This document shows positions 3,036-58,678 of a stretch of 64,000 nt of DNA, piece after piece; the first letter of the stretch is position 1, and each line of letters begins with the position of its first letter. Both the position numbers and the translations under genes were made by a program. This stretch comes from an uncultured bacterium (lineage in GTDB: Bacteria; Patescibacteriota; Microgenomatia; UBA1400; UBA12108): the NCBI GenBank assembly GCA_903945195.1, contig CAJAUT010000013.1, positions 11,473 to 75,472 on the forward strand, in the 5' to 3' direction. The notes below the pieces were generated by a model. It had not been told where the DNA came from, made no database searches, and saw only the letters and a program-made list of their open reading frames with translations.

Positions 3036-3674
3036 ATGACAATTAGAAAATTGTACGAAAAATATCATGTCATGCCACAGCTTGTGACCCACATGCTTCG
3101 AGTTGGGGCGGTAGGAAAAATTATTGCAGACAACTGGGTGAGTGAGTGTGACATAAAATTTACAACTGATTTGTGTTTGATACATGATATGGGAAATATC
3201 GTGAAATTTGATTTGAGTCAAAAAGAGAATAATAAATTGTTTGGACCAATTGAAAATATAGAAAAATGGAGAGAGATACAAAAATCATACTGGGACAAAT
3301 ATGGCCATGATGCACATGATGCAACCGTGGGGATACTAAATGACGCAGGACTTGGTAGATTTGTTGAGTGCATTACTGAAGAAGAGAAACTTTACTTTGC
3401 AGAAGCTAGTGCGTCTGAACTAGATGAGACAAATGTAGCCACGATAATCATGCTTTATAGTGACTGTAAGGTCACCCCAGGTGGAGTAGTCAGTTATCGG
3501 GAAAGAATTGATGATCTTTCAAAACGCTATGGTGGTGGGAGAACTAAAACATGGTACGACTGGACATATAGATTTGAAAAATGGATGCAGAGTAAAACTA
3601 AAATCGATTTGCAGAGCATAAATGAAGCGATGGTCGAGCCTCTCTTTGACGAACTACTGGATTACCAGATATAA
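3036..3674 (+). CDS. HD-domain phosphohydrolase
   Basis: H...HD metal-binding motif (HMLRV...LIHD). Confidence 0.5.
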   Translation: MTIRKLYEKYHVMPQLVTHMLRVGAVGKIIADNWVSECDIKFTTDLCLIHDMGNIVKFDLSQKENNKLFGPIENIEKWREIQKSYWDKYGHDAHDATVGILNDAGLGRFVECITEEEKLYFAEASASELDETNVATIIMLYSDCKVTPGGVVSYRERIDDLSKRYGGGRTKTWYDWTYRFEKWMQSKTKIDLQSINEAMVEPLFDELLDYQI

Positions 3675-4036: not shown

Positions 4037-5284
4037 ATGAAATACTCGAAAATGTTTGTCAAAACTTTAAAAACTGCACCCTCAGCCGCAGACACTGCCA
4101 ACCATAGGCTACTAGTACAGGCCGGGTTTGTACGCCAAGTCATGGCCGGAGTATATAGCTATCTACCACTAGGTCTTAGAGTACTTAATAAAATCTCAAA
4201 CATAGTCCGAGAAGAAATGGATACAATTGAGGCGCAAGAAGTGCTTATGCCGATCTTGCACCCAAGTGCACTCTGGAAACAAACTGGTGGATGGGACAAG
4301 ATCGATGTACTATTTAAAGTGAAAAGTAGAACTGATAGAGAGTACGCTCTAGCCCAAAGCAACGAAGAGACGGTCACTCCGCTTGCCAAAGAATGGATCC
4401 ACTCTGCCAAAGACTTGCCACTGGCGATCTACCATATCAACTGGAAATTCCGCGATGAACTAAGATCAAAATCAGGGATCATGCGCGGTCGCGAGTTTCT
4501 TATGAAAGATATGTATAGCTTCCATGCTACCCAGGAAGATTTTGACAAGTTTTACGCTAAAGCCAAGGTCGCCTACATGAATGTATATAAAAGGCTGGGA
4601 CTAGTAGCTAAAGCGACAGAGGCGTCTGGTGGTGCATTTACCGAAAAAGTATCTTATGAATTTGAGGTGCTAACTGATGCAGGTGAAGCTCCAGTACTAT
4701 ACTGTGACAAATGTGATTACTGTGTAAACGTGGATGATATCAAAACCTACAAGCTAGGGGACGAGTGTCCGATATGTCACAAAGATAACCTAAAATCTGC
4801 GATGGCTAGTGAGGTGGGAAATGTCTTTGACCTAGGGACAAAATATAGCAAAGCTTTTGAACTATCTATAAACGATAGTGAAGGAAATAAAATATTTCCT
4901 ATCATGGGCTGCTATGGTATAGGTATCTCTCGCACCATGGGGGTGATAGTCGAAAAGTTTAATGATGAGCGAGGCATAGTATGGCCAGCTAGCATTGCTC
5001 CTTTTACTGTGCATTTGTGTAGTTTAAATACCAATGATGAAACAGTAATTAAAAAAACTGATGCGATATACGAGTCGCTGACAAAAGCAGGTATTGAAGT
5101 GCTTTATGATGAGCGAACAGATGTGGGTGCCGGACAAAAACTAGGTGAGGCTGATATGATTGGCTGCCCTATCAGAGCTGTCGTTTCTACCAAGACAGGG
5201 GACCAAATAGAGGTGAAGATGAGAAGTGAGAAAGAAGCAAAAATGATGAGTCTTGAAGAACTAATTAATACCTGCAAGGTGTAA
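4037..5284 (+). CDS. proS: prolyl-tRNA synthetase, bacterial-type without editing (INS) domain, with an inserted Cys4 ribbon
   Basis: Strong N-terminal similarity to ProRS (class II motifs FRDE..., REFLMKDMYSFH, GCYGIGISR); CDKCDYC...CPICH insertion. Confidence 0.8.
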   Translation: MKYSKMFVKTLKTAPSAADTANHRLLVQAGFVRQVMAGVYSYLPLGLRVLNKISNIVREEMDTIEAQEVLMPILHPSALWKQTGGWDKIDVLFKVKSRTDREYALAQSNEETVTPLAKEWIHSAKDLPLAIYHINWKFRDELRSKSGIMRGREFLMKDMYSFHATQEDFDKFYAKAKVAYMNVYKRLGLVAKATEASGGAFTEKVSYEFEVLTDAGEAPVLYCDKCDYCVNVDDIKTYKLGDECPICHKDNLKSAMASEVGNVFDLGTKYSKAFELSINDSEGNKIFPIMGCYGIGISRTMGVIVEKFNDERGIVWPASIAPFTVHLCSLNTNDETVIKKTDAIYESLTKAGIEVLYDERTDVGAGQKLGEADMIGCPIRAVVSTKTGDQIEVKMRSEKEAKMMSLEELINTCKV

Positions 5285-5324
5285 CCTTGTAGGTTATCCG
5301 CTAGACCTACGAGGTTACACCTTG
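5275..5324. terminator. long near-perfect hairpin (about 20 bp stem) between convergent proS and gltX; candidate bidirectional terminator / REP-like palindrome
   Basis: caaggtgtaacc ttgtaggt ...loop... acctacga ggttacaccttg inverted repeat spanning both stop codons. Confidence 0.5.
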
Positions 5325-6709
5325 AGGGTCAAGCGAGCAAGCACTTTTTCGCGGCCGAGGATAACCATGGATTCACTCAGTGGTGGGGAGATTTTTTTGC
5401 CGGTTACTGCAAGTCTTAGTGCAGCAAAAAAAGGACCATTCTTCCAACCATGATCTTTGACGGCTGGGATAAGAGATCCTTCGATACCCTCTTTGGACCA
5501 TGCGCAGGAAGCAAGCAATTCTTTAGCAACTGAAAGATATTCTTTATCATCTGCAGTCATCTCAACAGCGGATGGTTCTAAATAAAAGAAACTTGCAAGA
5601 TCATCAAAATCTTTGAGAGTTACGAGACGCTCTTTGACGAGAGGGACAATACTCGCAAGTAATTCGCCGCTGCAAGCTGAAGGTACAAATCCTGCAGAAA
5701 GTCTCTCAGCTAACTCAACGTCTGTGAGTGAACGGATATAGCTACCATTGATCCAATTAAGTTTTTCGATATCATAAACCGGAGCTGTCAAAGTGATACG
5801 ATCTAGTGTAAATATTTTTAGAAATTCATCTAAACTGAAAATATCTTTTTTCTCAGGGTGAGACCAACCCATGAGCGCTAAGAAATTGTTAATAGCTTCT
5901 GGCAAGTAGCCGCGATCACGATGGGACAGAATTGAGACATCATTTTTGCGCTTACTCATTTTGCTATGATCTTTGTTTCTGATGACTGGGAGGTGAGCAA
6001 AGATGGGAAGCTCCCAACCAAAAGCCTCATAGATAAGCACATGTTTAGGCGAACTAGATAACCATTCTTCCCCACGAATAATGTGAGTAATCTTCATGAG
6101 ATGATCGTCGACCACTACCCCTAAATGGTAGGTAGGATAACCATCGGATTTTAGTAGCACCTGGTCATCAATACCTGAGTTTTGGAATTCTACAGGACCT
6201 CTGACGACGTCCTGACAAATGGTCACTCCTGTTTCTGGCACCGCTAGTCTGATGACGTGGGGCGCTTTTGAATCTAGTTGTTTTTGTATATCTTCGTCGG
6301 TTAGATGTCGACAGTGTCTGTCGTAGCGAGGCAACTCTTTTTTGGCTAGAGCAGCCGATCTAACTTGCTCTAGTCTCTCTTTGGTACAAAAACAATAATA
6401 GGCTTTTTTGTTTGCAATCAGCTGCTGTACGTACTCTTTATAGATAGGCAATCTTTCTGACTGAGTATATGGGGCGTAGGGACCACTGATATCTGGTGCC
6501 TCGTCATATGGATATCCTAACCATTTCATGGCTTCAAAAATGATATCGACAGCCCCTTCTACATAGCGCTCACGATCGGTATCTTCGATGCGGATGACAA
6601 ACTGACCACCATTTTGTCTGGCAATAGCCAAGTTGCGCATGGCGATGTAGGCCGTGCCCAAGTGAGCGATGCCGGTAGGTGAAGGTGCAATGCGTGTACG
6701 TACTGTCAT
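5315..6709 (-). CDS. gltX: glutamyl-tRNA synthetase
   Basis: PSPTG-x-H-x-G (HIGH-like) and KMSKR class I motifs; GluRS-like length. Confidence 0.8.
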   Translation of the reverse strand: MTVRTRIAPSPTGIAHLGTAYIAMRNLAIARQNGGQFVIRIEDTDRERYVEGAVDIIFEAMKWLGYPYDEAPDISGPYAPYTQSERLPIYKEYVQQLIANKKAYYCFCTKERLEQVRSAALAKKELPRYDRHCRHLTDEDIQKQLDSKAPHVIRLAVPETGVTICQDVVRGPVEFQNSGIDDQVLLKSDGYPTYHLGVVVDDHLMKITHIIRGEEWLSSSPKHVLIYEAFGWELPIFAHLPVIRNKDHSKMSKRKNDVSILSHRDRGYLPEAINNFLALMGWSHPEKKDIFSLDEFLKIFTLDRITLTAPVYDIEKLNWINGSYIRSLTDVELAERLSAGFVPSACSGELLASIVPLVKERLVTLKDFDDLASFFYLEPSAVEMTADDKEYLSVAKELLASCAWSKEGIEGSLIPAVKDHGWKNGPFFAALRLAVTGKKISPPLSESMVILGREKVLARLTLKV

Positions 6710-6732
6710 GGGAAGTATTATATACTAGCTAT

Positions 6733-7782
6733 ATGGCAAATCTCGGCGAAACAGCGATAGTGGCAAGAAAAGCTATCAAATATGGCGGAATAGGACTAGT
6801 GGTACTGATGATTGGGCGTATCATCCTGACAGCTTCGATCAATTACTACAAAATGTTAAACCCTGCACCACCACCACCACCTGATGTACTGTTTGGCAAG
6901 ATTCCAAAAATAGTATTCCCCCAAGCAGAAGCTCAGACATTTAACTACAAGTTAGAGACGCCAACTGGTGGACTGCCCACCAAACTACCTGGCCAGTTTA
7001 AAGTCTTTTTTATGCCGATCAAAAAAGCTAGTTTGTTAGCCTATGATGCTGCTCAGTCGGTGGCTACGAGATTGGACTTTATCCTGCCTGCAAAAAAATT
7101 GTCTGAGACAGAATATAGATGGGATGCCACCGATCCACTATCTGCCTCACTTACCATAAATATCATTACCGGAGCTTTTACACTTGATAAAAGATGGCAA
7201 GAAGACCCAAGCTACACTACTCCCACTATCTACTACAATGATGAGCAAGCAAAAGAAAGAGTCTATAGTCTCCTGTCCCGCGTAGAGCTACTACCACAAG
7301 ATATCAAAGAAGGTACAGCCACTGTACTACCACTTAAAGCAGATAAGGATCAGATAGTATCTGCTGCAGCGCTCGCTCAGGCTCATTTTTTGCAGGTAAA
7401 TTTATATAGAGCGCCTGTGGATAATGTAGAAGTCGTAAATCCCAGCTCTAAACAAGGATTAATCACTGCGATCATAGCTTTGCAGCGTGAGGATAAGAGA
7501 CAGTTTATCAATCTCAAATACAATTACTTTCCAGTGGATCTGACCAGGTCTGCGGTATATCCACTAATTGGTGTGGCTGAGGCATGGGCTCGACTACAAG
7601 CGGGACAGGCATTTATAGCCGGGGTCAAACAAAATACTACCAATGTGACGATAAATGATATAACTCTTAGATATTATGATCCAGATACTGCCCAACAATT
7701 CCTCCAGCCAGTTTATGAATTTACCGGATCACCTGATTTTGTAGCGTATGTACCGGCAGTAAGTGATGCGTGGACGGAGTAA
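6733..7782 (+). CDS. hypothetical membrane-anchored protein with poly-Pro linker
   Basis: N-terminal TM helix followed by PPPPP; no motif. Start moved to ATG 6733 to avoid overlap with gltX. Confidence 0.4.
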   Translation: MANLGETAIVARKAIKYGGIGLVVLMIGRIILTASINYYKMLNPAPPPPPDVLFGKIPKIVFPQAEAQTFNYKLETPTGGLPTKLPGQFKVFFMPIKKASLLAYDAAQSVATRLDFILPAKKLSETEYRWDATDPLSASLTINIITGAFTLDKRWQEDPSYTTPTIYYNDEQAKERVYSLLSRVELLPQDIKEGTATVLPLKADKDQIVSAAALAQAHFLQVNLYRAPVDNVEVVNPSSKQGLITAIIALQREDKRQFINLKYNYFPVDLTRSAVYPLIGVAEAWARLQAGQAFIAGVKQNTTNVTINDITLRYYDPDTAQQFLQPVYEFTGSPDFVAYVPAVSDAWTE

Positions 7783-10093: not shown

Positions 10094-11765
10094 GACTGCC
10101 TATCAACTGAAGCAACTCCTTGTCGCGCCAAACATTTATATCGATCGTACAAATAGCAGAAATTAAATGAGTCAGAGGATAGTCCAGCTTTGTATTAAAG
10201 AGCATAAGCTGACGAGTTTCACCATCCTGCTCTACCGTTAGCTTCCTGTGTTTACCACTACTGCCCAGCTGTTTGTCTTCTAAGACTTTTAAATTTTCGA
10301 AATAAAATTTGGGCTTTTGATTGTGCATACCAAAAGGCTCCATAGTAGAGATGAGTTTGGCGAGCTTGAGACTGGTAGAAGAAAGATCTAACTTTAGATC
10401 GGCAAAGTGAGTTTTTACCAGCAATTCATCTGTGATTTTTTTGTCTGCCAAAGCCTCTAATTCTTTAGTCATAGCTTTTACATTTTTTTTGTCGAGACTA
10501 AAACCTGCGGCTTGGTCATGACCACCCAGACCAAGGAAAGGAGTCTTGAGCGATCTAAGTAAATCAGTGATACTGACACCATTGACTGAGCGCGCTGAAC
10601 CTTTGATCACCTCTCCGTTATCGCTCATGACGATTGCTGGCTTGTTGTACAACTCTGCGAGTTTGCCGGCTACTAGTCCTATGACGCCTTCGTGATAATC
10701 ACCGATGATGACAATGATTTTGTGCTTGGCTTTTAGAGCAGCTACTGACTGCAATGCACTATCTGTATATTCTTGCCTATCTTTGTTGTGCGACTCTATT
10801 TTTGCAGCCAGCTCTTTGGCTTGTTTAGTATCTGAAGTACAAAGGAGTCGTAGAGCATCGAGTGGATTGTAGATACGGCCAGCTGCGTTGATGCGGGGAG
10901 CGATGCCAAAACTAATGTCATAGGTTGAGAGATCTTTAGCTCCTACACCCATTGCTTCTTTCATAGCGACGAGTCCTGGACGCTTGGTACGGGTAAGTGC
11001 AAATAAACCTTCTACGCAAATAGATCTATTTAAACCAACTAGTGGCATCATGTCTCCTACTACGCCTATCGTGGCTAGATCAACTAGGCGGATAGCAGCA
11101 TCACCTAGGAGATACATAGCAAAGATCCAGGCTACGCCCGCTCCTGAGGTGGCAGTCGTGTGCACGATGGCAGTTGCTTCTGGAAGAACTGATTCTGGGA
11201 GATGATGATCGGTGATAATCGTATCTATGCCAGCTGATTTAAATGTCGATATACCCACGTGGGCCACAATGCCTGTATCGACAGTGATGATGAGCTTGGG
11301 GCGATAACCTTTCAAGCTAGTGTGACTGAAAGCCTCGCCACTGACTACCTCAGCTACTGCTTTGTCCCCTAGGCCGTAACCATGTTTGTGACGATCTGGC
11401 ATAAATGGGAGGATGCGAGAGGTAGATTTTTGGAGCTTGGCGTAAGCGGTGATGGCCTGCCACATGATAGCGGTAGAGGAGACTCCGTCGGCGTCGTAAT
11501 CGCCAAAAACACAGATATCGGAAGATTTCTCTAGATGCGAGTCTATGAGCTTTTTGGCTTTATTTAAAATGGATTTTTTAAGACCTGATTCGTGCAAGAG
11601 ATAATCTAGATCTGGGGCAACTGGGTGCAAAAACTCTTCTTTTTGAACTTTGGTCTTGTATCCCCTACTCTCCATGAGAGTGTCAAAGATATCTTTGGCG
11701 GTAGCACCCTCTTCTACTTTGGTTTTGAGCTTGATGTCCATATTAATTTGTTCGGATAAAATCAA
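10080..11765 (-). CDS. recJ: single-stranded-DNA-specific exonuclease RecJ
   Basis: DHH family motifs (GDYDADG, ITDHH). Confidence 0.8.
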   Translation of the reverse strand: MILSEQINMDIKLKTKVEEGATAKDIFDTLMESRGYKTKVQKEEFLHPVAPDLDYLLHESGLKKSILNKAKKLIDSHLEKSSDICVFGDYDADGVSSTAIMWQAITAYAKLQKSTSRILPFMPDRHKHGYGLGDKAVAEVVSGEAFSHTSLKGYRPKLIITVDTGIVAHVGISTFKSAGIDTIITDHHLPESVLPEATAIVHTTATSGAGVAWIFAMYLLGDAAIRLVDLATIGVVGDMMPLVGLNRSICVEGLFALTRTKRPGLVAMKEAMGVGAKDLSTYDISFGIAPRINAAGRIYNPLDALRLLCTSDTKQAKELAAKIESHNKDRQEYTDSALQSVAALKAKHKIIVIIGDYHEGVIGLVAGKLAELYNKPAIVMSDNGEVIKGSARSVNGVSITDLLRSLKTPFLGLGGHDQAAGFSLDKKNVKAMTKELEALADKKITDELLVKTHFADLKLDLSSTSLKLAKLISTMEPFGMHNQKPKFYFENLKVLEDKQLGSSGKHRKLTVEQDGETRQLMLFNTKLDYPLTHLISAICTIDINVWRDKELLQLIGSHVEI

Positions 11766-12462
11766 GTGCTGATTTCACCATTTCCTTCCAGGCATTTTTT
11801 TCTATATTTGATTCAGGCTTGAGCATCTTATGTCCATACCCTGAGATAATTATTTTTTGAATATATTTGGCTGATTTAGAGTATATTTCTTTTACTTGCT
11901 CTGGGATCGTTGTGTCGTTTTCACCATAGAGCAAGAGAGTGGGATTACTAAACGATGACAAAGAACTAAATGCCAAACTATCTATCCAATTATTTTCTGT
12001 GTTGATTGCGTCTGAAAATTTGGGGCCAAAGCTCTGAGACTCTGCATGTTGTCCATAAGCTGCAGCTGACTGTAGGATCAAGCCTTTGATATTTGAATGA
12101 GTACTTGTAAGTCTAGCGGCGATATGACCACCCATACTAGAACCCCATAGAAAGATTTGATTATCTGTAAGTCCTGTTATATCTTTAAAACTCTTTAAGG
12201 CTGACTCTGCATCTACCAACCTATCTTTTAAGTTGCTTTCTTCAAAGATGCCTTCACTTGAGCCGCAGCCTCTAAAACTAAATGCCAAGCTAGTAATATT
12301 TTTATCTGAAAAAAATGACTGCACATCGCCATATCTTTCTGCACTTGAATGCCCTCCGCCATGAAGGAATAAAATCCCAACTTTAGAATGAGCTCTCGGA
12401 GTGTCAATAACACCATGTAGGACAAGGTTGTCAGACCGAATTTTTATATCTAGTTTAGTCAT
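11743..12462 (-). CDS. alpha/beta hydrolase (esterase/dienelactone hydrolase-like)
   Basis: GSSMGG nucleophile elbow, HGGGH oxyanion region. Confidence 0.55.
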   Translation of the reverse strand: MTKLDIKIRSDNLVLHGVIDTPRAHSKVGILFLHGGGHSSAERYGDVQSFFSDKNITSLAFSFRGCGSSEGIFEESNLKDRLVDAESALKSFKDITGLTDNQIFLWGSSMGGHIAARLTSTHSNIKGLILQSAAAYGQHAESQSFGPKFSDAINTENNWIDSLAFSSLSSFSNPTLLLYGENDTTIPEQVKEIYSKSAKYIQKIIISGYGHKMLKPESNIEKNAWKEMVKSALDFIRTN

Positions 12463-12492
12463 ATATTGTTCCGATGAATCGATTCAACGGTA
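12463..12492 (-). promoter_or_regulatory. 30-nt leader element containing 12-nt palindrome TGAATCGATTCA, abutting ATG of 11743..12462
   Basis: Near-identical copy at 12946..12975 abutting ATG of the TrpR-like gene. Confidence 0.5.
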
Positions 12493-12945
12493 TTATTTTA
12501 GTTTGCTTTTAATTATTCTAGTTTTATTTCTAAGAGCTTTTTCCTTTGCTAGGTGATGCCAATCGTGATATTTTCCTGGCGGCAACTTGTCTAATATAAC
12601 ATCAATATTGTCAAAAAATGTTTCCCAGTTTTTTTCTTTATTCAATTTTTCTAGACCTAACTTTGTACTCTCGGAGGCATTTTTTAGCCAGCTGTTTACA
12701 CTCATAACTGCTGAGTTGCTAACAAATAAGGTATTTTTGATATGTAGTGCTGAATGTCCTCTCATGAGCAATACCATTATCATAAACCTCTTGCTAAACA
12801 TAATTTTTTCGGTAGGAGTTAAAAAATCATTAAAAAAATGATCAATTGCATCTGAGGATTGCATTTTAGCCACAAAACTACTAAATTCCGTATATATAAG
12901 ATCTCCCATTTCTGGTTGTAGCTGATGTTTTGAGACCTGTGTCAT
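12493..12945 (-). CDS. TrpR-like (YerC/YecD family) DNA-binding protein; start at ATG 12945 rather than TTG 12957
   Basis: FLTPTEKIMFSKRFMIMVLLMRG...VSNSAV resembles the Trp repressor/YerC helix-turn-helix. Confidence 0.45.
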   Translation of the reverse strand: MTQVSKHQLQPEMGDLIYTEFSSFVAKMQSSDAIDHFFNDFLTPTEKIMFSKRFMIMVLLMRGHSALHIKNTLFVSNSAVMSVNSWLKNASESTKLGLEKLNKEKNWETFFDNIDVILDKLPPGKYHDWHHLAKEKALRNKTRIIKSKLK

Positions 12946-12975
12946 AAAATGTTCCAATGAATCGATTCAACGGTA
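12946..12975 (-). promoter_or_regulatory. second copy of palindrome-bearing leader element (TGAATCGATTCA) abutting ATG
   Basis: 27/30 identity with 12463..12492 including the spacing to the ATGAC start. Confidence 0.5.
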
Positions 12976-13031
12976 TAAAATTACTGTATTAGTTACATGA
13001 TACACTCCTTGCCCTGTGGTAGACTAGCTTT

Positions 13032-32701: not shown

Positions 32702-32728
32702 AGGATTATGTTAACACAGGTACCCATA

Positions 32729-32813
32729 AGGTCTGACCTGGTCTCCACATTGTATATTGAACTCGACTAAACATGCTTCGGCAAGCTCAGCATTTCCTTA
32801 GCAGGTCAGACCT
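32729..32813. repeat. about 85-nt long-hairpin element, copy 1 (homologous to 37274..37355); candidate terminator or structured RNA
   Basis: Outer stem aaggtctgacctg/caggtcagacctt; conserved core gtctcca..ttgtat.ttgaa.tcgactaaaca and ttccttag; apical hairpin differs with compensatory pairing. Confidence 0.55.
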
Positions 32814-32834
32814 TGTGGGCTACCATTGGGAGTG

Positions 32835-33110
32835 TCACCAGATTATTTTGCGGAGAGGTTTGGCGGCTTTGAAGTTGACGACGTGATGTGACTTTACAGT
32901 CACACGTTTGTCGCTTTTGCCAAAGGGAACTACATCTTTTGGCCCGACTTTACCGATAGAAAGTGTGCCTACTCCTGATAAAACAACTTTGTCACCTTTT
33001 TTGAGAGTCTTTACGACTTCATCCAAAAAAGTATCAATCGCGTCTTTGGCCGTTTTTTTGGTCATGTGAGCAGACTTGGCAATAATTTCGTAGTAATCGG
33101 ACTTTTTCAT
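32835..33110 (-). CDS. hup: DNA-binding protein HU
   Basis: HU/IHF family pattern including GVGTLSIG arm region. Confidence 0.8.
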   Translation of the reverse strand: MKKSDYYEIIAKSAHMTKKTAKDAIDTFLDEVVKTLKKGDKVVLSGVGTLSIGKVGPKDVVPFGKSDKRVTVKSHHVVNFKAAKPLRKIIW

Positions 33111-33135
33111 GGTTCTCTCCCCTATTTATAAATAA

Positions 33136-34662
33136 TTATTTTGCGACTTGTTGTGCGCGTGTTTCGCGAATGACAGTAACAGTAACTGTACCTGGATAGG
33201 TCAGCTTGGCTTTGATTTCATCTCTGATATCTGAGGCCATACGCACTGCTTCGTCGTCTGTGGCTTTACCTGGGTCTACCATGACGCGTACTTCTCGGCC
33301 GGCAGAGATAGCAAATGCTTCTAATGCGCCTGGCTTGGACATAGCGATTTCTTCGATAGCCTTCAAGCGCTTCACATATTCTGCCACATTTTCGTAACGT
33401 GCACCAGGACGTGAACCTGAGATTGCATCTGAAATGTAGACTAGGATAGATTCTTTACTTGTAAACTCAGTATCTTCGTGATGTTGAGCTACGCAGTCTA
33501 TCACTGCTTTTGGCATGTTGTTTTTTTCTAACAATTTGACGCCTAACTCTACGTGACTACCCTCTTCATCCGTGATGATTTTGCCGATATCGTGGAAGAG
33601 ACAACCCAAGCGGACGATGTCTACGTTGGCGTGAGTCTCTGCGGCTAGGTTCATACCGATTCTGGTTTCTTCTAGAGTATGAGCCAACATATTTTGGCCA
33701 TAACTAGAGCGGAACTTGAATCTACCAAGCATAGCAATGAGCTCTTGTGGGAGATTGTATGCACCTACCATGTGGCAAAGTTTCTTACCTTCTTCGTACA
33801 TGATTTTTTCGATATCATGGCGAGCTTTGGCGACATATTCTTCGATACGAGTTGGCTGGATACGACCATCTTTGATGAGACGTTCTAGGGCGACACGAGC
33901 TACCTCCCGGCGGACACCATCGTAACAAGAGAGTCTAACTTCACCTGGTGTTTCGTCCATGTCGATATCTACGCCAGTCACTTTTTCGAAGGTGCGGATA
34001 TTGCGACCCTCTTTACCGATGATGCGGCCTTTGACGTCGTCGTCGGCAATCTTGACTGTAGAGATAGTAAACTCGGCGACGTACTCTGTAGAGCCATGGT
34101 ACATGGCATCAATCAAGAGGTCGCGAGACTTTTCTTCGACTGTTTCTTTGATTTCATCTTCGGCGACACGGATACGCTCAGCTACATCGCGAGCGAGTTT
34201 TTTATCTACGGCTTCAAGGAGAATATCTTTGGCTTTTTCTTTGGTTAAGCCGCCGATTTTTTCTAGTTTTTCTACTTGTTTGAGTCTTAGTTCGGCCATC
34301 TCAGCTTTGGTCTTTTCGATATCTGCAAGGCGAGCATCGATTTGCTTATCTTTGGTGACTAGATTGTTTTCTTTAGTCTGAAGTGACTCTTCGTATTTAC
34401 GGAGCTTATCTTCTTGAGCGCGAAGCGTATTTTGGAGCTCACGCATCTCAGTTTTAGCTGTTTCGCGGATTTTTTCAGCTTCTTCTCTGGCAAAAGTGAG
34501 CACTTCTTTGGCGGTACTTTCGGCTTGTTTTAAAATCTCAGGATTTTCTAATACAACCTTGTCTTTTTTTACCTCGACTGGCTTAGCTACTTTTAATGTA
34601 GCTGATTTGACTACCTTTGATTTGTTGAAGGTAGCGAGTAATGATTTTAGTAATGATGACAT
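33136..34662 (-). CDS. rny: ribonuclease Y (ATG 34662 preferred over TTG 34695)
   Basis: Coiled-coil, KH domain (IIGKEGRNIR), HD domain (HTLE...LFHDIGK). Confidence 0.8.
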   Translation of the reverse strand: MSSLLKSLLATFNKSKVVKSATLKVAKPVEVKKDKVVLENPEILKQAESTAKEVLTFAREEAEKIRETAKTEMRELQNTLRAQEDKLRKYEESLQTKENNLVTKDKQIDARLADIEKTKAEMAELRLKQVEKLEKIGGLTKEKAKDILLEAVDKKLARDVAERIRVAEDEIKETVEEKSRDLLIDAMYHGSTEYVAEFTISTVKIADDDVKGRIIGKEGRNIRTFEKVTGVDIDMDETPGEVRLSCYDGVRREVARVALERLIKDGRIQPTRIEEYVAKARHDIEKIMYEEGKKLCHMVGAYNLPQELIAMLGRFKFRSSYGQNMLAHTLEETRIGMNLAAETHANVDIVRLGCLFHDIGKIITDEEGSHVELGVKLLEKNNMPKAVIDCVAQHHEDTEFTSKESILVYISDAISGSRPGARYENVAEYVKRLKAIEEIAMSKPGALEAFAISAGREVRVMVDPGKATDDEAVRMASDIRDEIKAKLTYPGTVTVTVIRETRAQQVAK

Positions 34663-34813
34663 ATGTCTCCTAAAAAAACTGTTAAAACCAATCAAGAAAT
34701 AACTACCAAAAAACAGAATCCGCTACTTAAACTAATTTTGCTTGGAACATTGAATATAGTTTGGTCATGTTTTTGTTTTTTTTGTAATATCTTTCTTAAA
34801 AGGTACTCTCATT

Positions 34814-35434
34814 CTACTCTGACTGCCAGCTTTTTACAACCTCAGACACCTTGTCCCAGGCGAAGCCCTGTCTAACCAGATAGCCCTGGATTTTGACCTG
34901 CTCTAGCTTGTCTAAAGTCCTATGACTCCCTAGTTTTTTGTCTAGTAAATGCATAATTGTGGCTTTTTCGTCACCCATAGTTGAGACCAAATCAGAGACT
35001 ATATCCTTGGGTACCCCTTTTTGCGAAAGTTCCATTTTGAGCATACTCACAGACCTGGGACGGTGGGTATTTCTGGACTGTATGAACCACTTGGCGAAAC
35101 TGACATCGTCCAGATACCCTTTGGACTTTAATTTGTCGATAACAAGGTTTTGAGAGTCCTCGTCTTTTACCTCGTATTTCCATAGACGATCGCGCACTTC
35201 TTTGACAGTACGGGGACGAAATGAAAGGAAGTTTAGGATCTTACCGTAGATATACTCGTCCGAGTCGGCTTTTTTTAGATCCTCGATTTCAGCTGGAGAA
35301 AGTTCCAACCCTTTTTTTAGGGATTTCTTGCCCACTTCATCTATAGAAAGTGCAAAGACAAAGACATCATCCAAGTAAAGATTGACCCTATTTGGGTTTT
35401 TCTTGCCCTGGACTAAGCGTGTAATGACTGGCAT
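34814..35434 (-). CDS. recX: RecX-like regulatory protein
   Basis: Immediately downstream of recA; RecX-like helical repeats. Confidence 0.6.
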   Translation of the reverse strand: MPVITRLVQGKKNPNRVNLYLDDVFVFALSIDEVGKKSLKKGLELSPAEIEDLKKADSDEYIYGKILNFLSFRPRTVKEVRDRLWKYEVKDEDSQNLVIDKLKSKGYLDDVSFAKWFIQSRNTHRPRSVSMLKMELSQKGVPKDIVSDLVSTMGDEKATIMHLLDKKLGSHRTLDKLEQVKIQGYLVRQGFAWDKVSEVVKSWQSE

Positions 35435-36498
35435 TAGACTGCTGCTTTTTCCTCTTCTTTTTCGACGGCTTTGATTTGATCCCAGATTTCTTTTTCGATT
35501 TTTTTCATGAGATCTGGTTTCTCTTCAAGGAGAGCTTTGGTAGCTTCGCGACCTTGGGCTAGCATCTCACCATTGTATTTAAAGAAGGAGCCTGATTTTT
35601 CGATGATACCTTTGTCTACGGCTACATCTAGGACTCCGCCAGAGCGTGAAATACCATTTGCGGTCATGTCGAACTCGGCCACTTTAAAGGGAGGCGAGAC
35701 TTTGTTTTTGACTATCTTGGCTCTGTGATGAGAGCCTACGATAGTATCGCCTTCTGTGATATTGCCTACTTTGCGCATATCGATACGGACAGAAGAGTAG
35801 AACTTGAGGGCTTGACCGCCGGCTGTGGTCTCTGGATTACCAAACATCACACCGATCTTCATGCGGAGCTGATTGGTGAAGATCATGACAGTGTTGCTCT
35901 TGCTGATGGCACCTGTGAGTTTGCGAAGTGCTTGGGACATGAGGCGTGCTTGCATACCCATGACGGCATCGCCCATCTCCCCTTCGATCTCGGCCTTGGG
36001 GACGAGAGCGGCGACTGAGTCTACGACGATCACGTCTACGGCCCCTGAACGGATCAAGGTCTCGGCAATCTCTAGGGCTTGCTCACCGGTGTCTGGCTGA
36101 GAGATGAGGAGCTCGTCTAGATTGACTCCGACCGCCTTGGCGCGGGCTGGGTCTAGGGCATGCTCTGCGTCAATGAAAGCGGCGGTACCACCTTGTTTTT
36201 GAGCTTGCGCGATGACGTGTAAACAGACAGTGGTTTTGCCGGAAGCCTCAGGTCCGTAGATCTCTGTGATGCGGCCACAAGGGAAGCCACCGATACCTAG
36301 AGCCAGGTCGAGTGCTATGGCGGAGGTAGGGATACTTTTGATGTCCATGTGATGGGAGGCGCCGAGCTTCATGATGGAGCCAGTACCAAATTGTTTGTCG
36401 ATCTGCTCCATGGCCACTTTAATGGCCTGAAGTTTCTCAGATTTTAAATCTGGTTTTGAGTTTACTGTTTTTTCTGCTTTGTCGTTTGCTTTGGCCAT
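35434..36498 (-). CDS. recA: recombinase RecA
   Basis: Walker [20 protein letters not shown]1/L2 loops. Confidence 0.9.
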
Positions 36499-36527
36499 AT
36501 ACCCTCCTATAAATATTTCTTATATCT

Positions 36528-36557
36528 AATATGACCAAAAACTACCCGAATGTCAAC
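36528..36557 (-). promoter_or_regulatory. recA promoter: perfect -35 TTGACA inside conserved module GTTGACATTCGGGTAGT, 17-nt spacer, -10 CATATT; AGGAGG Shine-Dalgarno follows
   Basis: Read on minus strand; same 17-nt module at 37194..37210. Confidence 0.5.
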
Positions 36558-36642
36558 AGATCAAAATGTGACTTTTATGGTCCCACCTTTGTTTTTTGAG
36601 CATATTTTGATATACTACATGTATCATCATGACTGGACTAGC

Positions 36643-37173
36643 CTAAGGTTTCGACCGACCGCGAATGCCAGTCTTTTTATATTCAAGCGACTTTTTCAAT
36701 AAATCTATTCTCACTATAAAGTTGTTGTATTTTCGCAGCAAACTAGAGTAGTGCATAGTAGGTGCAAGTATTTTTAACAACTTACCTTGTTTTTCTAGAT
36801 ACTCTATCAAACAGAAAAAATCTCCATCCCCAGAAACTATGATAGCTTTAGAATAGTGATCATATTCCACCATCGAATGTAATACCAATTCGGCATCCAC
36901 ATTTCCTTTGATGACTGTGGCCTTCCCTTCCTTTCTTTCCAAAGTTGGCTTAAAGATACAAGTATAGCCAGCTAAATTGAGTGACTTGTAGAGACTTTCA
37001 TTGCCTGGAACCATACCAATAAATAGGAAGGCTTTCGAAACACTATATTTATCTGTGAGATATCTTCTGAATTTTGCAAAATCTAAGTGCCAACCTTGTG
37101 ACTTTACTCCAAGGTTTAAGTTTTGACTATCGATAAACGCATATACTATTTTTTCTTTTACTTTAATTCCCAT
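36643..37173 (-). CDS. NYN/LabA-like domain protein
   Basis: YAFIDSQN ... IVSGDGDF pattern of NYN (DUF88) nucleases. Confidence 0.65.
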   Translation of the reverse strand: MGIKVKEKIVYAFIDSQNLNLGVKSQGWHLDFAKFRRYLTDKYSVSKAFLFIGMVPGNESLYKSLNLAGYTCIFKPTLERKEGKATVIKGNVDAELVLHSMVEYDHYSKAIIVSGDGDFFCLIEYLEKQGKLLKILAPTMHYSSLLRKYNNFIVRIDLLKKSLEYKKTGIRGRSKP

Positions 37174-37180
37174 ACTATTA

Positions 37181-37210
37181 ATTTATTCCAAATACTACCC
37201 GAATGTCAAC
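37181..37210 (-). promoter_or_regulatory. promoter for the NYN gene (GTTGACATTCGGGTAGT module, 17-nt spacer, -10 ATAAAT); geometry predicts a leaderless mRNA starting at the ATG
   Basis: -10 ends 7 nt before the A of ATG 37173; no Shine-Dalgarno present. Confidence 0.45.
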
Positions 37211-37273
37211 CCCTCCTTCGCTCTGCAAGCTACGGGAGGGCACGGTGGAACAATTTAGAACAAAATTCCAATA

Positions 37274-37355
37274 AGGTCTGACCTGGTCTCCAGTTTGTAT
37301 TTTGAAGTCGACTAAACAATCCGCCATGGCGGATATTCCTTAGCAGGTCAGACCT
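37274..37355. repeat. about 85-nt long-hairpin element, copy 2, immediately downstream of rpsI
   Basis: See 32729..32813; apical stem here is the perfect palindrome atccgccatggcggat. Confidence 0.55.
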
Positions 37356-37371
37356 TTGGGAACTGAAAATT

Positions 37372-37821
37372 TTAGCGTTTTGGTGATTGCTTGGTGCGGC
37401 GAGACTTACCACCAGTACCGATCATGCGGCGCTGTTTGGCACGAGCATCGCGGGTAAGTAGGCCGGCGGTCTTTAGAGTAGCTCTGTAGGCATCGCGGTC
37501 AAGTAAAGCTAAAGCGCGAGCTATACCGTGGATGGTAGCATCGAGCTGGCCTTTTTTGCCTGAGCCTAAAACTACGACTGAAGCTGACATTTTGGTTAGA
37601 GTTTCGGTAAGAATAAAAGGCTTTCTGTAAGCAGCTTTGGATGTTTCACCTGGGAAATAGACATCGGCTGGCTTGCCATTGACTGTAAGCTGGATGCCAT
37701 CAAAACCTGGGACACTAGCTGATTTATAGATACGGACGCGAGCATTGGCGGTCTTTCTGCGACCTACTGCGTAGGTATAGTTTGCTTTTGTAGTGGTTTT
37801 TTTGACGATAGCTTTAGCCAT
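37372..37821 (-). CDS. rpsI: 30S ribosomal protein S9
   Basis: uS9 C-terminal basic tail ...RRTKQSPKR. Confidence 0.9.
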   Translation of the reverse strand: MAKAIVKKTTTKANYTYAVGRRKTANARVRIYKSASVPGFDGIQLTVNGKPADVYFPGETSKAAYRKPFILTETLTKMSASVVVLGSGKKGQLDATIHGIARALALLDRDAYRATLKTAGLLTRDARAKQRRMIGTGGKSRRTKQSPKR

Positions 37822-42857: not shown

Positions 42858-42896
42858 GCCCTACAAGGTTGCCCTACAAGGTTACACCTTGAAGGT
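42858..42896. repeat. tandem 13-nt direct repeat (gccctacaaggtt x2) plus half-copy of the 5275..5324 palindrome (cctacaaggttacaccttgaaggt)
   Basis: 24-nt match with 2 transitions to the 3' arm of the proS/gltX hairpin. Confidence 0.5.
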
Positions 42897-44204
42897 TTAG
42901 CGGATGAAAGAATCGTAGGATTTGGTGACCTGGTAGGACTCGGTCTTGCGGTAGGTTTCTAGGACGACGGAGACGACGATGAGGATACTGGTTCCACCTA
43001 TTGTGAGTGTAGTGATGCCGGTTAGACCCTGGACGATACTAGGCAAAATTGCGATAAGACCTAGAAATAGTGCACCAGCTAGAGTGGTGCGCTTGACGAT
43101 ATAACTCATGTATTTACTGGTTTCTTTGCCTGGTCTAATGCCTGGGACGTAACCACCATTTTGTTTGAGCTGATCTGCGATCTTGTCGGTATCAAAAACT
43201 ACAGCTGTATAGAAATAGGTAAAGCTGACAACCATGGCAAAATAAAAGATGTTGTAGGCGATAGAGGTCGGGGTAAACCAAGCGGCAAAAGCGGTAGCGG
43301 CGGATGCGACACTAGCATTGCCTACCCCTTTGAGTAAATTGGCGAGCATAGAAGGAGCTAGTACTAAAGCGATAGCAAAGATGATTGGAATGACGCCAGC
43401 ATTGTTGAGTTTGATCGGGAGATAAGTAGAGCCACCACCTGTTTCTTTGCCTCCTCGCATGCGGCGAGAGTAAGAAACGGGGATGCGGCGCTTGGCTTCG
43501 TCGATAGCTACGATCGAGTAGATAACAAACAACCCTAGGATAGCATAAGCCACAATACTGGCTGGATTTATAGTTGAGGCGATGGTGCTAGTTTGTAAGA
43601 AGGTGACTGGTAGACGCCCTACGATACCGGCAAAAATCAGGAGCGAGATACCGTTTCCTAGACCATACTCTGTCAGGTTTTCTCCTAGCCACATGAGGAA
43701 GATACTGCCTGCAGCCATAGTGGCAAGCAGTGTGATAATAGAAAGTGGATTAGTGGTCGTAACTAGCTGACTATTTTTTAGTGGCATAAACATAGCGGCG
43801 CTCTGCATGATAGCTAAAGGTACGGCCAACATACGAGTATATTGATTGATGATGTTTTGACCTGTCTCGCCTTCTTTTTGCATCTCTTCAAGTTTGGGAT
43901 TGATCATGGTCATAAGCTGCATGATGATAGAGGCATTGATGTAAGGATTTAAGCCTAGGGCTAGGATAGAAAAGTTGGCAAGTGTACCACCAGAAAAGAC
44001 ATCAAGTAGCGAGAGAAGTTGATTGGAAGCAAAGACGTTTTTTATGGCCTCTAAGTTTACACCTGGCACTGGAATATGGGTAACAAAACGAAATATAGCA
44101 AAAATAACTAGGGTTACAATGAGGCGTCTACGAAGTTCCCTGTTGGTTTTTAGAGTAAGTAGCAGCTCTTTAAGCTTGTCCACTGTACTCCCCCTTTGCA
44201 GCAA
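42897..44204 (-). CDS. secY: protein translocase subunit SecY
   Basis: 10-TM SecY pattern. Confidence 0.9.
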
Positions 44205-57532: not shown

Positions 57533-58678
57533 GTGCAAGATAATTTTAGAATGTTAAATGGGCAGACACTGCCATATCCACTGTTTTTCCCGGATGCTAC
57601 GAGGGGTGAGGTAAGACAGCTGACATTTGAGGATGTAAAAATGGTTGGGTTACCAGGGATACTCGTAAATACCTTTCATCTACTGAGACTAGTGGGGACA
57701 GAGAAAACCGTGGCAGCTGGTGGAATACATAAATACCTGGGATGGGACGGCGCTATGATATCTGACTCTGGAGGATTTCAGGTAATGTCGATCGCCAAGA
57801 AATATGGGGGAAACAGCACTGTGACGGATGAGGGTGTGACATTCACTCTCGACGGCATTGATCATCATTTCTCCCCCGAAGATTCAATTAAATATCAGAT
57901 GGCGATGGGGACTGACCTAATGGTGGTGCTAGATGACTTCACCCCACCGGATGCCACACATGAAGAAGCGGAGGTCACGGTAAATAGGACGACACTTTGG
58001 GCAAAGAGATGTAAGGAAGAATTCAACAGGCTGCAAAGTTCCGATCACTCGCCTAAAATCACGCAAGGATCGGAACTAGGGAACAAAAGACCTTATCTGA
58101 TTGGGGTGGTACAGGGAGGAGAATACGAAGACCTGAGACTAAAGAGCATTAAAGAGCTGATGGAAATTGGGTTTGATGGGTACGGTTATGGAGGATTCCC
58201 CATGAAAGATGGGAAATTTGATGAGGCAATGGCAAAGTTTATGGCGGACAATTTGCCAAAAGATACCGTATTGTATGGCCTAGGAATAGGTAAACCAGAT
58301 GATATTGTGAAATGCGTGAACCTAGGATGGCAGATATTTGATTGTGTCCTACCAACAAGGGACGCCCGCCACGGACGGCTTTATGTATATACCAATGAAC
58401 CTGCCCGCAGTGCTTACAGCACAGCTGTTGCAGGCGGGTCGATTCAACGGATCAATGTGCAAAAAGATGGATTTTATGAATATTACAACCCTAGACAGGC
58501 GTTACATCTCGAAGAAACTGGGCCGGTTAGTAGTGCGTGTGATTGCGAACTGTGCACGAGTTTGAGCCGCAAAGAATTTGCTACCATGTGGAGAGCGCGA
58601 GATGAAAAAGTGCTGCGACTAGCCACGATCCATAACCTTAGGTTTTATGCGATACTGATGGAAAAATTGAGGAAATGA
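57533..58678 (+). CDS. tgt: queuine tRNA-ribosyltransferase (GTG start with GGAGGA Shine-Dalgarno)
   Basis: DSGGFQ, LMVVLDDFTPP, VQGG, GFDGYGYGG, FDCVLPTRDARHG, CDCELC...H zinc site; about 28-aa lineage-specific insertion before the zinc site. Confidence 0.8.
   Translation: MQDNFRMLNGQTLPYPLFFPDATRGEVRQLTFEDVKMVGLPGILVNTFHLLRLVGTEKTVAAGGIHKYLGWDGAMISDSGGFQVMSIAKKYGGNSTVTDEGVTFTLDGIDHHFSPEDSIKYQMAMGTDLMVVLDDFTPPDATHEEAEVTVNRTTLWAKRCKEEFNRLQSSDHSPKITQGSELGNKRPYLIGVVQGGEYEDLRLKSIKELMEIGFDGYGYGGFPMKDGKFDEAMAKFMADNLPKDTVLYGLGIGKPDDIVKCVNLGWQIFDCVLPTRDARHGRLYVYTNEPARSAYSTAVAGGSIQRINVQKDGFYEYYNPRQALHLEETGPVSSACDCELCTSLSRKEFATMWRARDEKVLRLATIHNLRFYAILMEKLRK
58399..58440. repeat. 42-nt repeat, exact copy of 11..52, in-frame inside tgt (encodes EPARSAYSTAVAGGS)
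   Basis: Direct comparison. Confidence 0.8.

Follow-up and report, generated by a model that had tools for sequence, protein, structure and literature searches.

Interspersed palindromic repeats with a covarying three-way junction in Collierbacteria-like Microgenomates: an apparently undescribed family found after gene ends and within open reading frames

What kind of genetic element is a long hairpin that stands twice in the same stretch of bacterial DNA, each time shortly after the stop codon of a conserved gene, hup in one case and rpsI in the other? In this work we address this question for a window of 64,000 nt (the whole stretch analysed) from an uncultured bacterium of the Patescibacteriota (Microgenomatia; UBA1400; UBA12108; assembly GCA_903945195.1, contig CAJAUT010000013.1, positions 11,473 to 75,472). 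An initial annotation of this window had offered three identities for the element, namely an unusual terminator lacking a U-tract, a small structured RNA, or a miniature inverted-repeat transposable element (MITE). Comparison with relatives, which were metagenome-assembled genome (MAG) or metagenome fragments (loci with L-numbers) covering 1-20 kb around each copy, makes the last of these the best fit of the three, the element being interspersed, bounded by inverted repeats, and gained or lost at orthologous sites. Our best reading is that the two copies belong to a family of small non-coding, non-autonomous interspersed repeats of Collierbacteria-like Microgenomates, within the Candidate Phyla Radiation (CPR), which is apparently undescribed.

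The two window copies largely bear out the initial annotation, whose coordinates were one base off. Copy A (core 32728-32814, 87 nt) and copy B (core 37273-37356, 84 nt) have identical outer arms (a 20-mer and a 21-mer) with no other match in the window even when three mismatches are allowed (0.01 and 0.00 expected from shuffles), and they share an internal block, TTGTATNTTGAANTCGACTAAACA, that occurs in the window exactly twice. The stems continue into the flanks of both, as had been claimed (copy A, GGTAGCCCA/TGGGTACC; copy B, TTCCCA/TTGGAA). Copy A begins 20 nt past the stop codon of hup (TGA, 32835-32837, minus strand) and copy B 15 nt past that of rpsI (TAA, 37372-37374, minus strand), the latter being the final gene of a ribosomal-protein/rpoA cluster that copy B closes. 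All genes around both copies lie on the minus strand, as do most genes of the window, in which GC skew is positive throughout, and both copies are sense-oriented in 3' untranslated regions. A promoter had been said to follow each copy; this holds for copy B, after which a promoter-like TTGACA-18-TAAATT stands at 37209-37180 (minus strand), but a promoter scan of the window flagged none after copy A. Compared with 200 shuffles, the folding of A and B gave z scores of -4.1 to -5.1 on either strand, with no shuffle as stable, and at -36 to -45 kcal/mol both are stable G+C-rich hairpins. By arm length they come third and thirteenth among the inverted repeats of the window whose arms are separated by no more than 130 nt, and well-separated arms of at least 13 nt with at least 88% complementarity are found in the window only in copies A and B and at 5270-5329. 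Read on the gene-sense strand (the minus strand of the window), each copy folds into a three-way junction of helices P1, P2 and P3, with the following parts:

32720..32822, minus strand: copy A, full covariance-model match (core plus pairing flanks) in the 3' region of hup; 98.3 bits, E ~1e-22, on the minus strand and 28 bits on the plus strand
32802..32814, minus strand: copy A, P1 5' arm, AAGGTCTGACCTG on the sense strand (arm match and alignment)
32728..32740, minus strand: copy A, P1 3' arm, CAGGTCAGACCTT (arm match and alignment)
32773..32793, minus strand: copy A, variable hairpin P2, AUGCUGAGCUUGCCGAAGCAU (alignment)
32741..32767, minus strand: copy A, P3 region, GUCGA, a 17-nt A-rich stretch and GAGAC, with GUC/GAC pairs flanking tandem G.A/A.G (alignment, RNAalifold)
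37265..37364, minus strand: copy B, covariance-model match over its full length (core 37273-37356), 3' region of rpsI; 99.1 bits (minus strand) and 27.6 bits (plus strand)
37344..37356, minus strand: copy B, P1 5' arm (arm match)
37273..37285, minus strand: copy B, P1 3' arm (arm match)
37319..37334, minus strand: copy B, variable hairpin P2, AUCCGCC-AU-GGCGGAU (folding, alignment)
37286..37312, minus strand: copy B, P3 region, GUCGA, CUUCAAAAUACAAACUG and GAGAC (alignment)

This fold is common to the 49 distinct copies of our structural alignment. Helix P1 is formed by a 5' arm, ARGGUCYGACCYG, and a 3' arm, CRGGUCRGACCYU; at the DNA level the 13-nt arms ARGGTCYGACCYG / CRGGTCRGACCYT are present in all 49, as the terminal inverted repeats of a MITE would be, and these ends, built round GGTCYGACC, are at the same time direct repeats of one another (AGGTCNGACCT). 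The joining strands J1/2 (CUAAGGARA) and J2/3 (UGUUUA) are near-invariant, as is GAGAC. P2 is a hairpin of 17-24 nt, and P3 consists of GUC-GA, a variable segment of 7-18 nt and GA-GAC, whose 43 distinct segments, most of which keep the fold, range from a mini-loop of 7 nt to G+C-rich hairpins of 15 nt, both window copies having an A-rich stretch of 17 nt. The observation that the apical hairpins of A and B differ while both pair extends to the whole family, in which P2 has 32 distinct sequences, nearly all of them folding; its description as compensatory variation stands only in part, as the whole hairpin module is swapped between A and B and no point compensation separates them. The 21-nt P2 of copy A is also that of the hup copies in L002 and L062 and of the rpsI copy in L019; since one P2 is thus shared by three hup sites and an rpsI site, all in different genomes, modules are exchanged between copies. 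The core measures 71-88 nt, and ~100-103 nt with pairing flanks; pairing often runs on into the flanks, and the one on the right, A-W-W-G-G, hardly varies (52 of 54 copies have G), so that the element is really ~100 nt long.

Evidence for compensatory change comes from all three helices. In P1, 99.7% of cells are paired and double-sided changes occur at three pairs (in 21, 14 and 8 sequences), and in P2 such changes affect six of eight pairs. In P3 an invariant GUC/GAC brackets the tandem G.A/A.G, past which the first two pairs covary (CU/AG, AC/GU, GC/GC, UC/GA, CC/GG). The observed level of covariation was reached by none of 500 column shuffles, pairing collapses to 24-42% when partners are slid by 1-3 columns, and RNAalifold, applied independently, recovers P1, the base of P2 and GUC/GAC. 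These statistics count sequences, not events, and copies at orthologous sites are not independent, but both the slid-register control and the variety of pair types speak for a real covariation signal. The constraint is also strand-specific: on the sense strand the non-pairs of P1 number two and its G.U wobbles nine, its two positions left free by the search pattern show four U.G against no C.A, the tandem G.A/A.G is confined to the sense strand (the other strand having C.U/U.C), and the covariance model scores ~100 bits in the sense and ~28 bits in the antisense orientation. On the evidence of this alignment, the fold of one strand is under selection and is kept by compensatory changes. Three more specific structural assignments were rejected. 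By eye, the core UAGUCGA...GAGAC does not match the CUGANGA...GAAA of hammerhead ribozymes, and the tandem G.A pairs lack the 3-nt bulge of a K-turn. A pairing of CUAAG with UUUAG was unsupported, the variants CUCCGG, CUCAGG and CUUAGG being uncompensated; these variants look synonymous in the open frame of the element, but the copies that carry them are intergenic, so that selection at the peptide level is not indicated.

Furthermore, the family extends well beyond the window. A covariance model, which the initial annotation had named as a check, was built from the copies and gives ~58 strong matches in ~405 kb of loci, exactly two of them in the window; in all, ~58 copies were recovered, and the Microgenomates MAGs and metagenome contigs that carry them number more than 20. 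When 185,579 species genomes were scanned for three interior motifs, 18 real copies in ~8 CPR MAGs came to light together with one chance match, and a metagenome scan keyed on the arms alone added 29 members, all 29 of which carry the same interior motifs; the interior conservation is therefore not an artefact of ascertainment. MAGs with copies are labelled Microgenomates or Woesebacteria, some of these labels being evidently wrong, and a homologue search with the ABC ATPase encoded next to hup places the window among Collierbacteria-like Microgenomates. All contigs that encode an identical Hup protein carry the element, and several MAGs have 2-5 copies per 8-kb locus. A diverged relative in L004 and L008 shows two compensatory T-A to C-G stem changes, a different apical hairpin and a shortened 3' part, while retaining GCTAAGGAA, TGTTTAGTCGA and GAGACC. 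We also recognise a sister family (family 2) with the arms and right flank of the element described so far (family 1) and a different interior (TTGAAGGAYGAGCCCAACCC, then a hairpin).

Searches for a known counterpart were negative. Rfam 15 gave no match anywhere in the window at gathering thresholds, and in E-value mode (E <= 10) copy A matched only generic miRNA-hairpin models at 18 bits or less. A tRNA/tmRNA scan found none, a scan of IMG/VR with the interior pattern gave no match, blastn against a phage collection gave no match, and a protein database searched with a tandem 58-aa profile of the element peptide yielded 132 word-sharing candidates, none at E <= 0.01. The literature searched contains no description of the element, nor of any MITE or repetitive extragenic palindromic (REP) family in Microgenomates. 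With no Rfam family matching and no published description found, the element is apparently new.

Where the copies sit bears directly on their identity. In a census of 50 distinct copies, 21 lie within 100 nt after a same-strand open reading frame (ORF); five overlap the end of such an ORF, which stops at the TGA of AAG-GUC-UGA inside the arm; five are antisense, directly after an opposite-strand ORF; 12 are in-frame inside long ORFs of 440-525 codons; and seven have no assigned context. Eleven of the 12 in-frame hosts are, by sequence similarity, one polytopic Wzy_C-like membrane protein encoded downstream of the rnpA-yidC-jag cluster, the twelfth being an ORF of L027. Two of these ORFs were run against Pfam and gave Wzy_C/O-antigen ligase, that of L025 scoring 37.4 bits (cut-off 31.7) and that of L020 30.5 bits, just below it. 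Within the Wzy_C-like ORF the element occupies at least four different positions and occurs two or three times in one gene, and the in-frame reading is always R/G-S-D-L/P-L-R-K-S-W-x-x-A-K-M-F-S-R. Of the six possible frames one alone lacks stops, and every in-ORF copy uses that frame; five of 21 translated copies, window copy A included, interrupt it with stops, and these five all lie between genes. An EnvC-like coiled-coil ORF apparently starts at the AUG of the element in L023 and L027 (MFSRLQN..RRPGQTL followed by a hydrophobic segment that would plausibly act as a signal peptide). The hosts seen are the Wzy_C-like protein (at several sites), the EnvC-like N-terminus and the C-termini of five ORFs, among them the L028 and L050 orthologues of the window ORF 5315..6709; to these family 2 adds the ABC ATPase, whose last codons and stop the element supplies.

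The Wzy_C-like gene (L025, oriented 5717-7156; L014, L054; L031, L020) contains further in-frame repeats in its loop regions, among them FENLRIYDLR (DNA TTTGAGAATTTGAGAATTT...), present up to four times, and QFRTLRKRVFGTFA, present three times; judged by these repeats, the gene is a hotspot of repeat insertion. Since one frame of the element is open, ORF finders and public gene calls place spurious ORFs of 49-60 aa on it, such as 37230..37412 (minus strand, 60 aa) in the window and L010:3495-3644 (49 aa, following rpsI).

Orthologous sites provide a second line of evidence. We compared five syntenic loci of 15-21 kb from relatives with 80-89% identity in the ABC ATPase, together with other loci, and found the following states:

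hup-ABC spacer, empty (4-9 nt): L068, L071, L072
hup-ABC spacer, full family-1 copy: the window, L002, L004, L019, L055, L062, L070
hup-ABC spacer, one-arm stub CCCCAAAGG-ACAGACCTTAAGGG with the same flanks as in L070: L069
rpsI site, family 1: the window, L019, L063
rpsI site, family 2: L070
rpsI site, canonical hairpin+T6 terminator (TCTTGTA-G-TACAAGA, then TTTTTT): L071:3785-3833
rpsI site, with neither family 1, family 2 nor a canonical terminator: L068, L069, L072
ABC ATPase/permease junction, genes overlapping: the window, L068, L069, L071
ABC ATPase/permease junction, family-2 copy: L002, L004, L070
5276..5323 of the window, no strand assigned: simple hairpin of 19 bp, AAGGTGTAACC...GGTTACACCTT, related to the element and flanked by convergent genes (synteny, inverted-repeat search)
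42878..42890 of the window, no strand assigned: lone 13-mer palindrome resembling an arm, AAGGTTACACCTT, directly behind the stop of the 435-aa ORF 42897..44204 (at the secY position by synteny with L072)

In a tree of RecA and Rny the filled and empty states of the hup site are interleaved, with L068 (empty) sister to L070 (filled) and L071 (empty) sister to L019 (filled), so that several gains or losses are required. Turnover is also apparent over a short distance, as the hup gene of L002 is 100% identical in nucleotide sequence to that of the window, yet only L002 has the family-2 copy at the ABC junction. The hairpin at 5270-5329, the longest in the window (25-nt arms, 88% complementary), has arms at 5276-5323 that differ from the family arms by two compensated substitutions, with the stop codon of the minus-strand gene at the same arm position, and L028 and L050 have a full family-1 copy at the 3' end of the orthologue of the window ORF 5315..6709. 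In the window at 42860-42900, the palindrome AAGGTTACACCTT adjoins a tandem duplication (CCCTACAAGGTT GCCCTACAAGGTT) and, from its sequence, looks like a remnant of a related hairpin.

Other palindromes were met at the same sites. At its ABC ATPase/permease junction L072 carries a different palindromic element (10937-11001; GAGTTCCGATC...GATCGGAACTTC, interior CCTGCCTGCGCAGACAGG). In L068 a duplicate remnant of the rpsI 3' end (ACCAAGCAATCACCCAAGCGCTAA) lies at 3355-3522, ~65-90 nt past the real rpsI stop, preceded by another palindrome, AGTCAGTCCGTAGC-TTTA-GCGTAGGATGACT; this arrangement suggests an insertion with a long target duplication.

Taken together, the dispersed inverted-repeat ends, the sister families, the patchy occupation of sites, the deletion derivatives, the survival of copies in-frame and the donated stops and starts point to a repeat of the kind represented by MITEs, Rickettsia palindromic elements (RPEs) and REPs. 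We consider, with a probability of roughly two in three, that the element is a palindromic repeat which is, or once was, mobile and is recognised through its folded single strand. It would spread, or would once have spread, as DNA, mobilised in trans by an enzyme recognising the arms and/or the folded strand. Given the lack of a target-site duplication and the strand-specific constraint, an HUH-type single-stranded-DNA enzyme, of the kind that acts on REPs (RAYT) or derivatives of the insertion sequences (IS) IS200/IS605, would be at least as likely a mobiliser as a cut-and-paste transposase binding terminal inverted repeats. The arms, being both inverted and direct repeats, would also offer a simple slippage route from a full copy to a one-arm stub, by which the interior may have been lost. 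In the window the copies would be co-transcribed with hup and rpsI, and a stem of 13-20 bp after the stop codon would form in the transcript, where the long 3' stem-loop might block read-through or exonucleases or be a site of processing, secondarily to its nature as a repeat. Such a role at 3' ends or in operon punctuation is plausible but inferred; the terminator of L071 at the same spot, the gap of only 4-9 nt between hup and the ABC gene when the site is empty and the -10-like boxes when it is filled make it reasonable.

Several results weigh against mobility. None of the 54 flank pairs compared shows a direct repeat that could be a target-site duplication; in part the flanks form inverted repeats, and AWWGG on the right seems to belong to the element itself. 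We saw neither an autonomous partner nor a transposase whose ends match, although the test is weak, covering only a few kb around each copy. No widely spaced arm pairs occur in ~436 kb, solitary arm 9-mers are found at the chance rate, and copy number is low (two in 64 kb). There was no clean pair of filled and empty sites differing only by the element, the flanking spacer always differing; the Wzy-like gene of L018 and L015 is likewise rearranged in its loop region. In addition, the junction strands are unchanged at orthologous sites even though third-codon positions of hup are only 56-59% identical, which a host function would explain no less well than selfish spread. The lack of duplication and the strand-specific invariant junction do not fit a classical cut-and-paste MITE.

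A bolder proposal, which we regard as speculative, is that CPR bacteria harbour a new kind of mobile structured nucleic acid in which the invariant junction (GCUAAGGARA / UGUUUA-GUCGA / GAGAC, with its tandem G.A) does the work. This junction might be the single-stranded-DNA substrate of an HUH-like or other enzyme, an active RNA, or a portable start module consisting of a Shine-Dalgarno sequence, a hairpin and an AUG, for which the EnvC-like gene of L023 and L027 offers a hint. As an active RNA it could act in protein recruitment, processing or self-cleavage, and the host would have recruited the element to punctuate operons. If true, the Patescibacteria would thereby gain their first family of this sort with covariation support.

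Among the alternatives to a mobile repeat, the one that survives best, while still unlikely, is that the copies are dedicated U-tract-less terminators or 3'-end stabilisers which spread through selection for that function. Where an adjacent ORF can be assigned, 26 of 31 copies stand directly after, or overlap the stop of, a same-strand ORF, and copy B closes the ribosomal-protein cluster with a promoter-like site next to it. At the exact place of copy B, L071 has a classical hairpin with T6, which also demonstrates that such terminators do exist in the clade, and canonical terminator-like sites are not enriched in the region (22 against 16.1 +/- 3.6 in shuffles). The hup-ABC spacer, closed up to 4-9 nt when empty, has a -10-like box (TATACT, TATATA) right after the element when filled, suggesting that the element may split the operon. 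The initial annotation had stated beforehand that copies inside coding regions or in random orientation would speak against terminators, and we find 12 copies in-frame inside long ORFs, up to three per gene, and five antisense. If a U-tract is taken to mean five or more T among the first 8 nt past the stem, it is present in one of 50 copies in the sense and none of 50 in the antisense orientation; close relatives lack the element at the same sites; and a terminator, needing only the stem, leaves the invariant asymmetric interior and the covarying three-way junction unexplained. As the primary identity of the element, termination accordingly fails the test that the initial annotation had set for it.

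Slightly less probable still is a functional structured RNA module, that is, a protein-binding, catalytic or ligand-binding three-way junction maintained by the host and dispersed secondarily. The part of the initial annotation that foresaw a small structured RNA is upheld in that one strand keeps its three-way junction by covariation, with three near-invariant joining strands across genomes whose synonymous sites are saturated, and with wobble pairs favouring the sense strand. It also agrees with such a module that tandem sheared G.A/A.G is conserved at the base of P3 in all copies and recurs within P2 of two subtypes, next to a pair that covaries between G.U, C-G, A-U and G-C, and that J1/2 holds a Shine-Dalgarno-like UAAGGAG/A with an NUG following P2, as at the EnvC-like starts of L023 and L027. 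What this explanation does not accommodate is that no Rfam family matches even at E <= 10, that some copies are antisense to the local transcript, that in-ORF copies are evidently translated through, that P2 and P3 vary widely in length and have no conserved loop, and that relatives lack the element at the same genes, with no consistent gene association.

Finally, it is very improbable that the arms are operators of a dimeric DNA-binding protein (GGT-N3-ACC, like GntR/FadR boxes) and the element a paired operator: each arm is itself a 13-bp palindrome, AAGGT-NNN-ACCTT, and the GntR-type LldR and PdhR boxes contain TGGTCTGACCA-like sequences, but the copies lie at gene 3' ends and inside ORFs, not at promoters, the arms covary mutually at three positions, which is not required of a duplex-DNA operator, and the conserved interior is left unexplained.

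Set against known systems, the mobile-repeat interpretation finds its closest analogue in the RPEs, short repeats found both between genes and in-frame within them, without a known transposase, whose in-frame insertion is described as unusually frequent in Rickettsia (PMC10969869). Our element shares with them its short palindromic nature, its intergenic as well as in-frame copies with a conserved peptide, the lack of a known transposase and a host lineage with reduced genomes. It differs in apparently having no sequence relationship to RPEs, in its host phylum and in its size (~87 nt against ~150 bp). The in-frame copies seen so far concentrate in one Wzy_C-like protein and in terminal fusions, whereas RPEs occur in many unrelated enzymes, and a covarying three-way junction with invariant junction strands is documented for the present element. 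Correia and ERIC hairpins are substrates of RNase III or RNase E, and some of them carry promoters (PMC10969869). The Correia/NEMIS and ERIC MITEs resemble our element in their terminal inverted repeats, a length of ~100-150 bp or less, the absence of an ORF, their location next to genes and co-transcription as long hairpins; with a core of 71-88 nt, multiple copies and presence/absence between relatives, the element has the size (below ~300 bp, with no coding capacity for a transposase) and dispersion of a MITE. Unlike Correia and ERIC, it has no TA or other duplication, a low copy number, no known parent IS, a conserved asymmetric interior and arms that are direct repeats.

REPs and REPINs (mobilised by RAYT) and elements derived from IS200/IS605 are one-strand hairpins that lie after genes, make no target-site duplication and keep their stems by compensation. 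The strand-asymmetric wobbles and missing duplication of our element recall them, but it has no GTAG-type 5' tetranucleotide, forms a three-way junction and not a simple imperfect hairpin, and is longer than a single REP (20-40 nt), and none of the fragments around the copies has yielded a RAYT or Y1 transposase gene. Intrinsic terminators and the pneumococcal SPRITE repeats likewise place G+C-rich stems directly after stop codons, but our element has no U-tract in 49 of 50 copies and also occurs in ORFs and antisense. Integron attC sites are similar as imperfect palindromes a few nt after ORF stops that fold as single strands and conserve structure more than sequence; our element lacks their RYYYAAC/GTTRRRY core sites, ends in AAGGTC.../...GACCTT, has copies inside ORFs and neighbours core genes (hup, rpsI) and not cassettes, with no intI seen. 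REP, attC, the intrinsic terminator and every Rfam family are each missing at least one defining feature. A likeness to Tn3-type inverted repeats (GGGGTCTGAC) was set aside, as it concerns a 9-mer and there is no 5-bp duplication.

Three further repeats were noted in the window. A 23-nt repeat containing TTGACATTCGGGTAGT(N)TTTGG lies at 36535-36557 and 37188-37210, upstream of recA and of a gene with a NYN domain, accompanied by minus-strand promoters at 36556-36528 and 37209-37180; the motif also stands upstream of recA in L069 and L072, and is a conserved promoter or operator, possibly for DNA-damage control. An unrelated 51-nt palindromic repeat, ACCTGCCCGCAGTGCTTACAGCACAGCTGTTGCAGGCGGGT, occurs at 2-52 and 58390-58440 (94% identical), one copy being intergenic and the other inside the open frame 57533..58678 (plus strand), whose product has a C-terminal C-x-C-x2-C motif; it looks like another in-frame palindromic repeat family of the same genome. 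Lastly, a 43-nt direct repeat (86% identical, with the palindrome CCGATGAATCGATTCAACGG) is found 483 nt apart at 12458-12500 and 12941-12983, at both ends of a 154-aa minus-strand ORF (12493..12957), and is a candidate shared operator.

Members of the CPR (Patescibacteria) have tiny genomes, and we know of no catalogue of their repeats. The covariance model presented here can be used to mask spurious ORF calls of 40-60 aa. A machinery of mobilisation or recognition, which could be sought, is indicated by the strong constraint on the three-way junction and by the absence of target duplications. For the biology of these organisms, the family extends in-frame insertion of palindromic repeats, known from Rickettsia, to free-living or episymbiotic ultra-small bacteria, in which it reshapes a surface-polysaccharide (Wzy_C-like) membrane protein and adds C- and N-terminal extensions to others.

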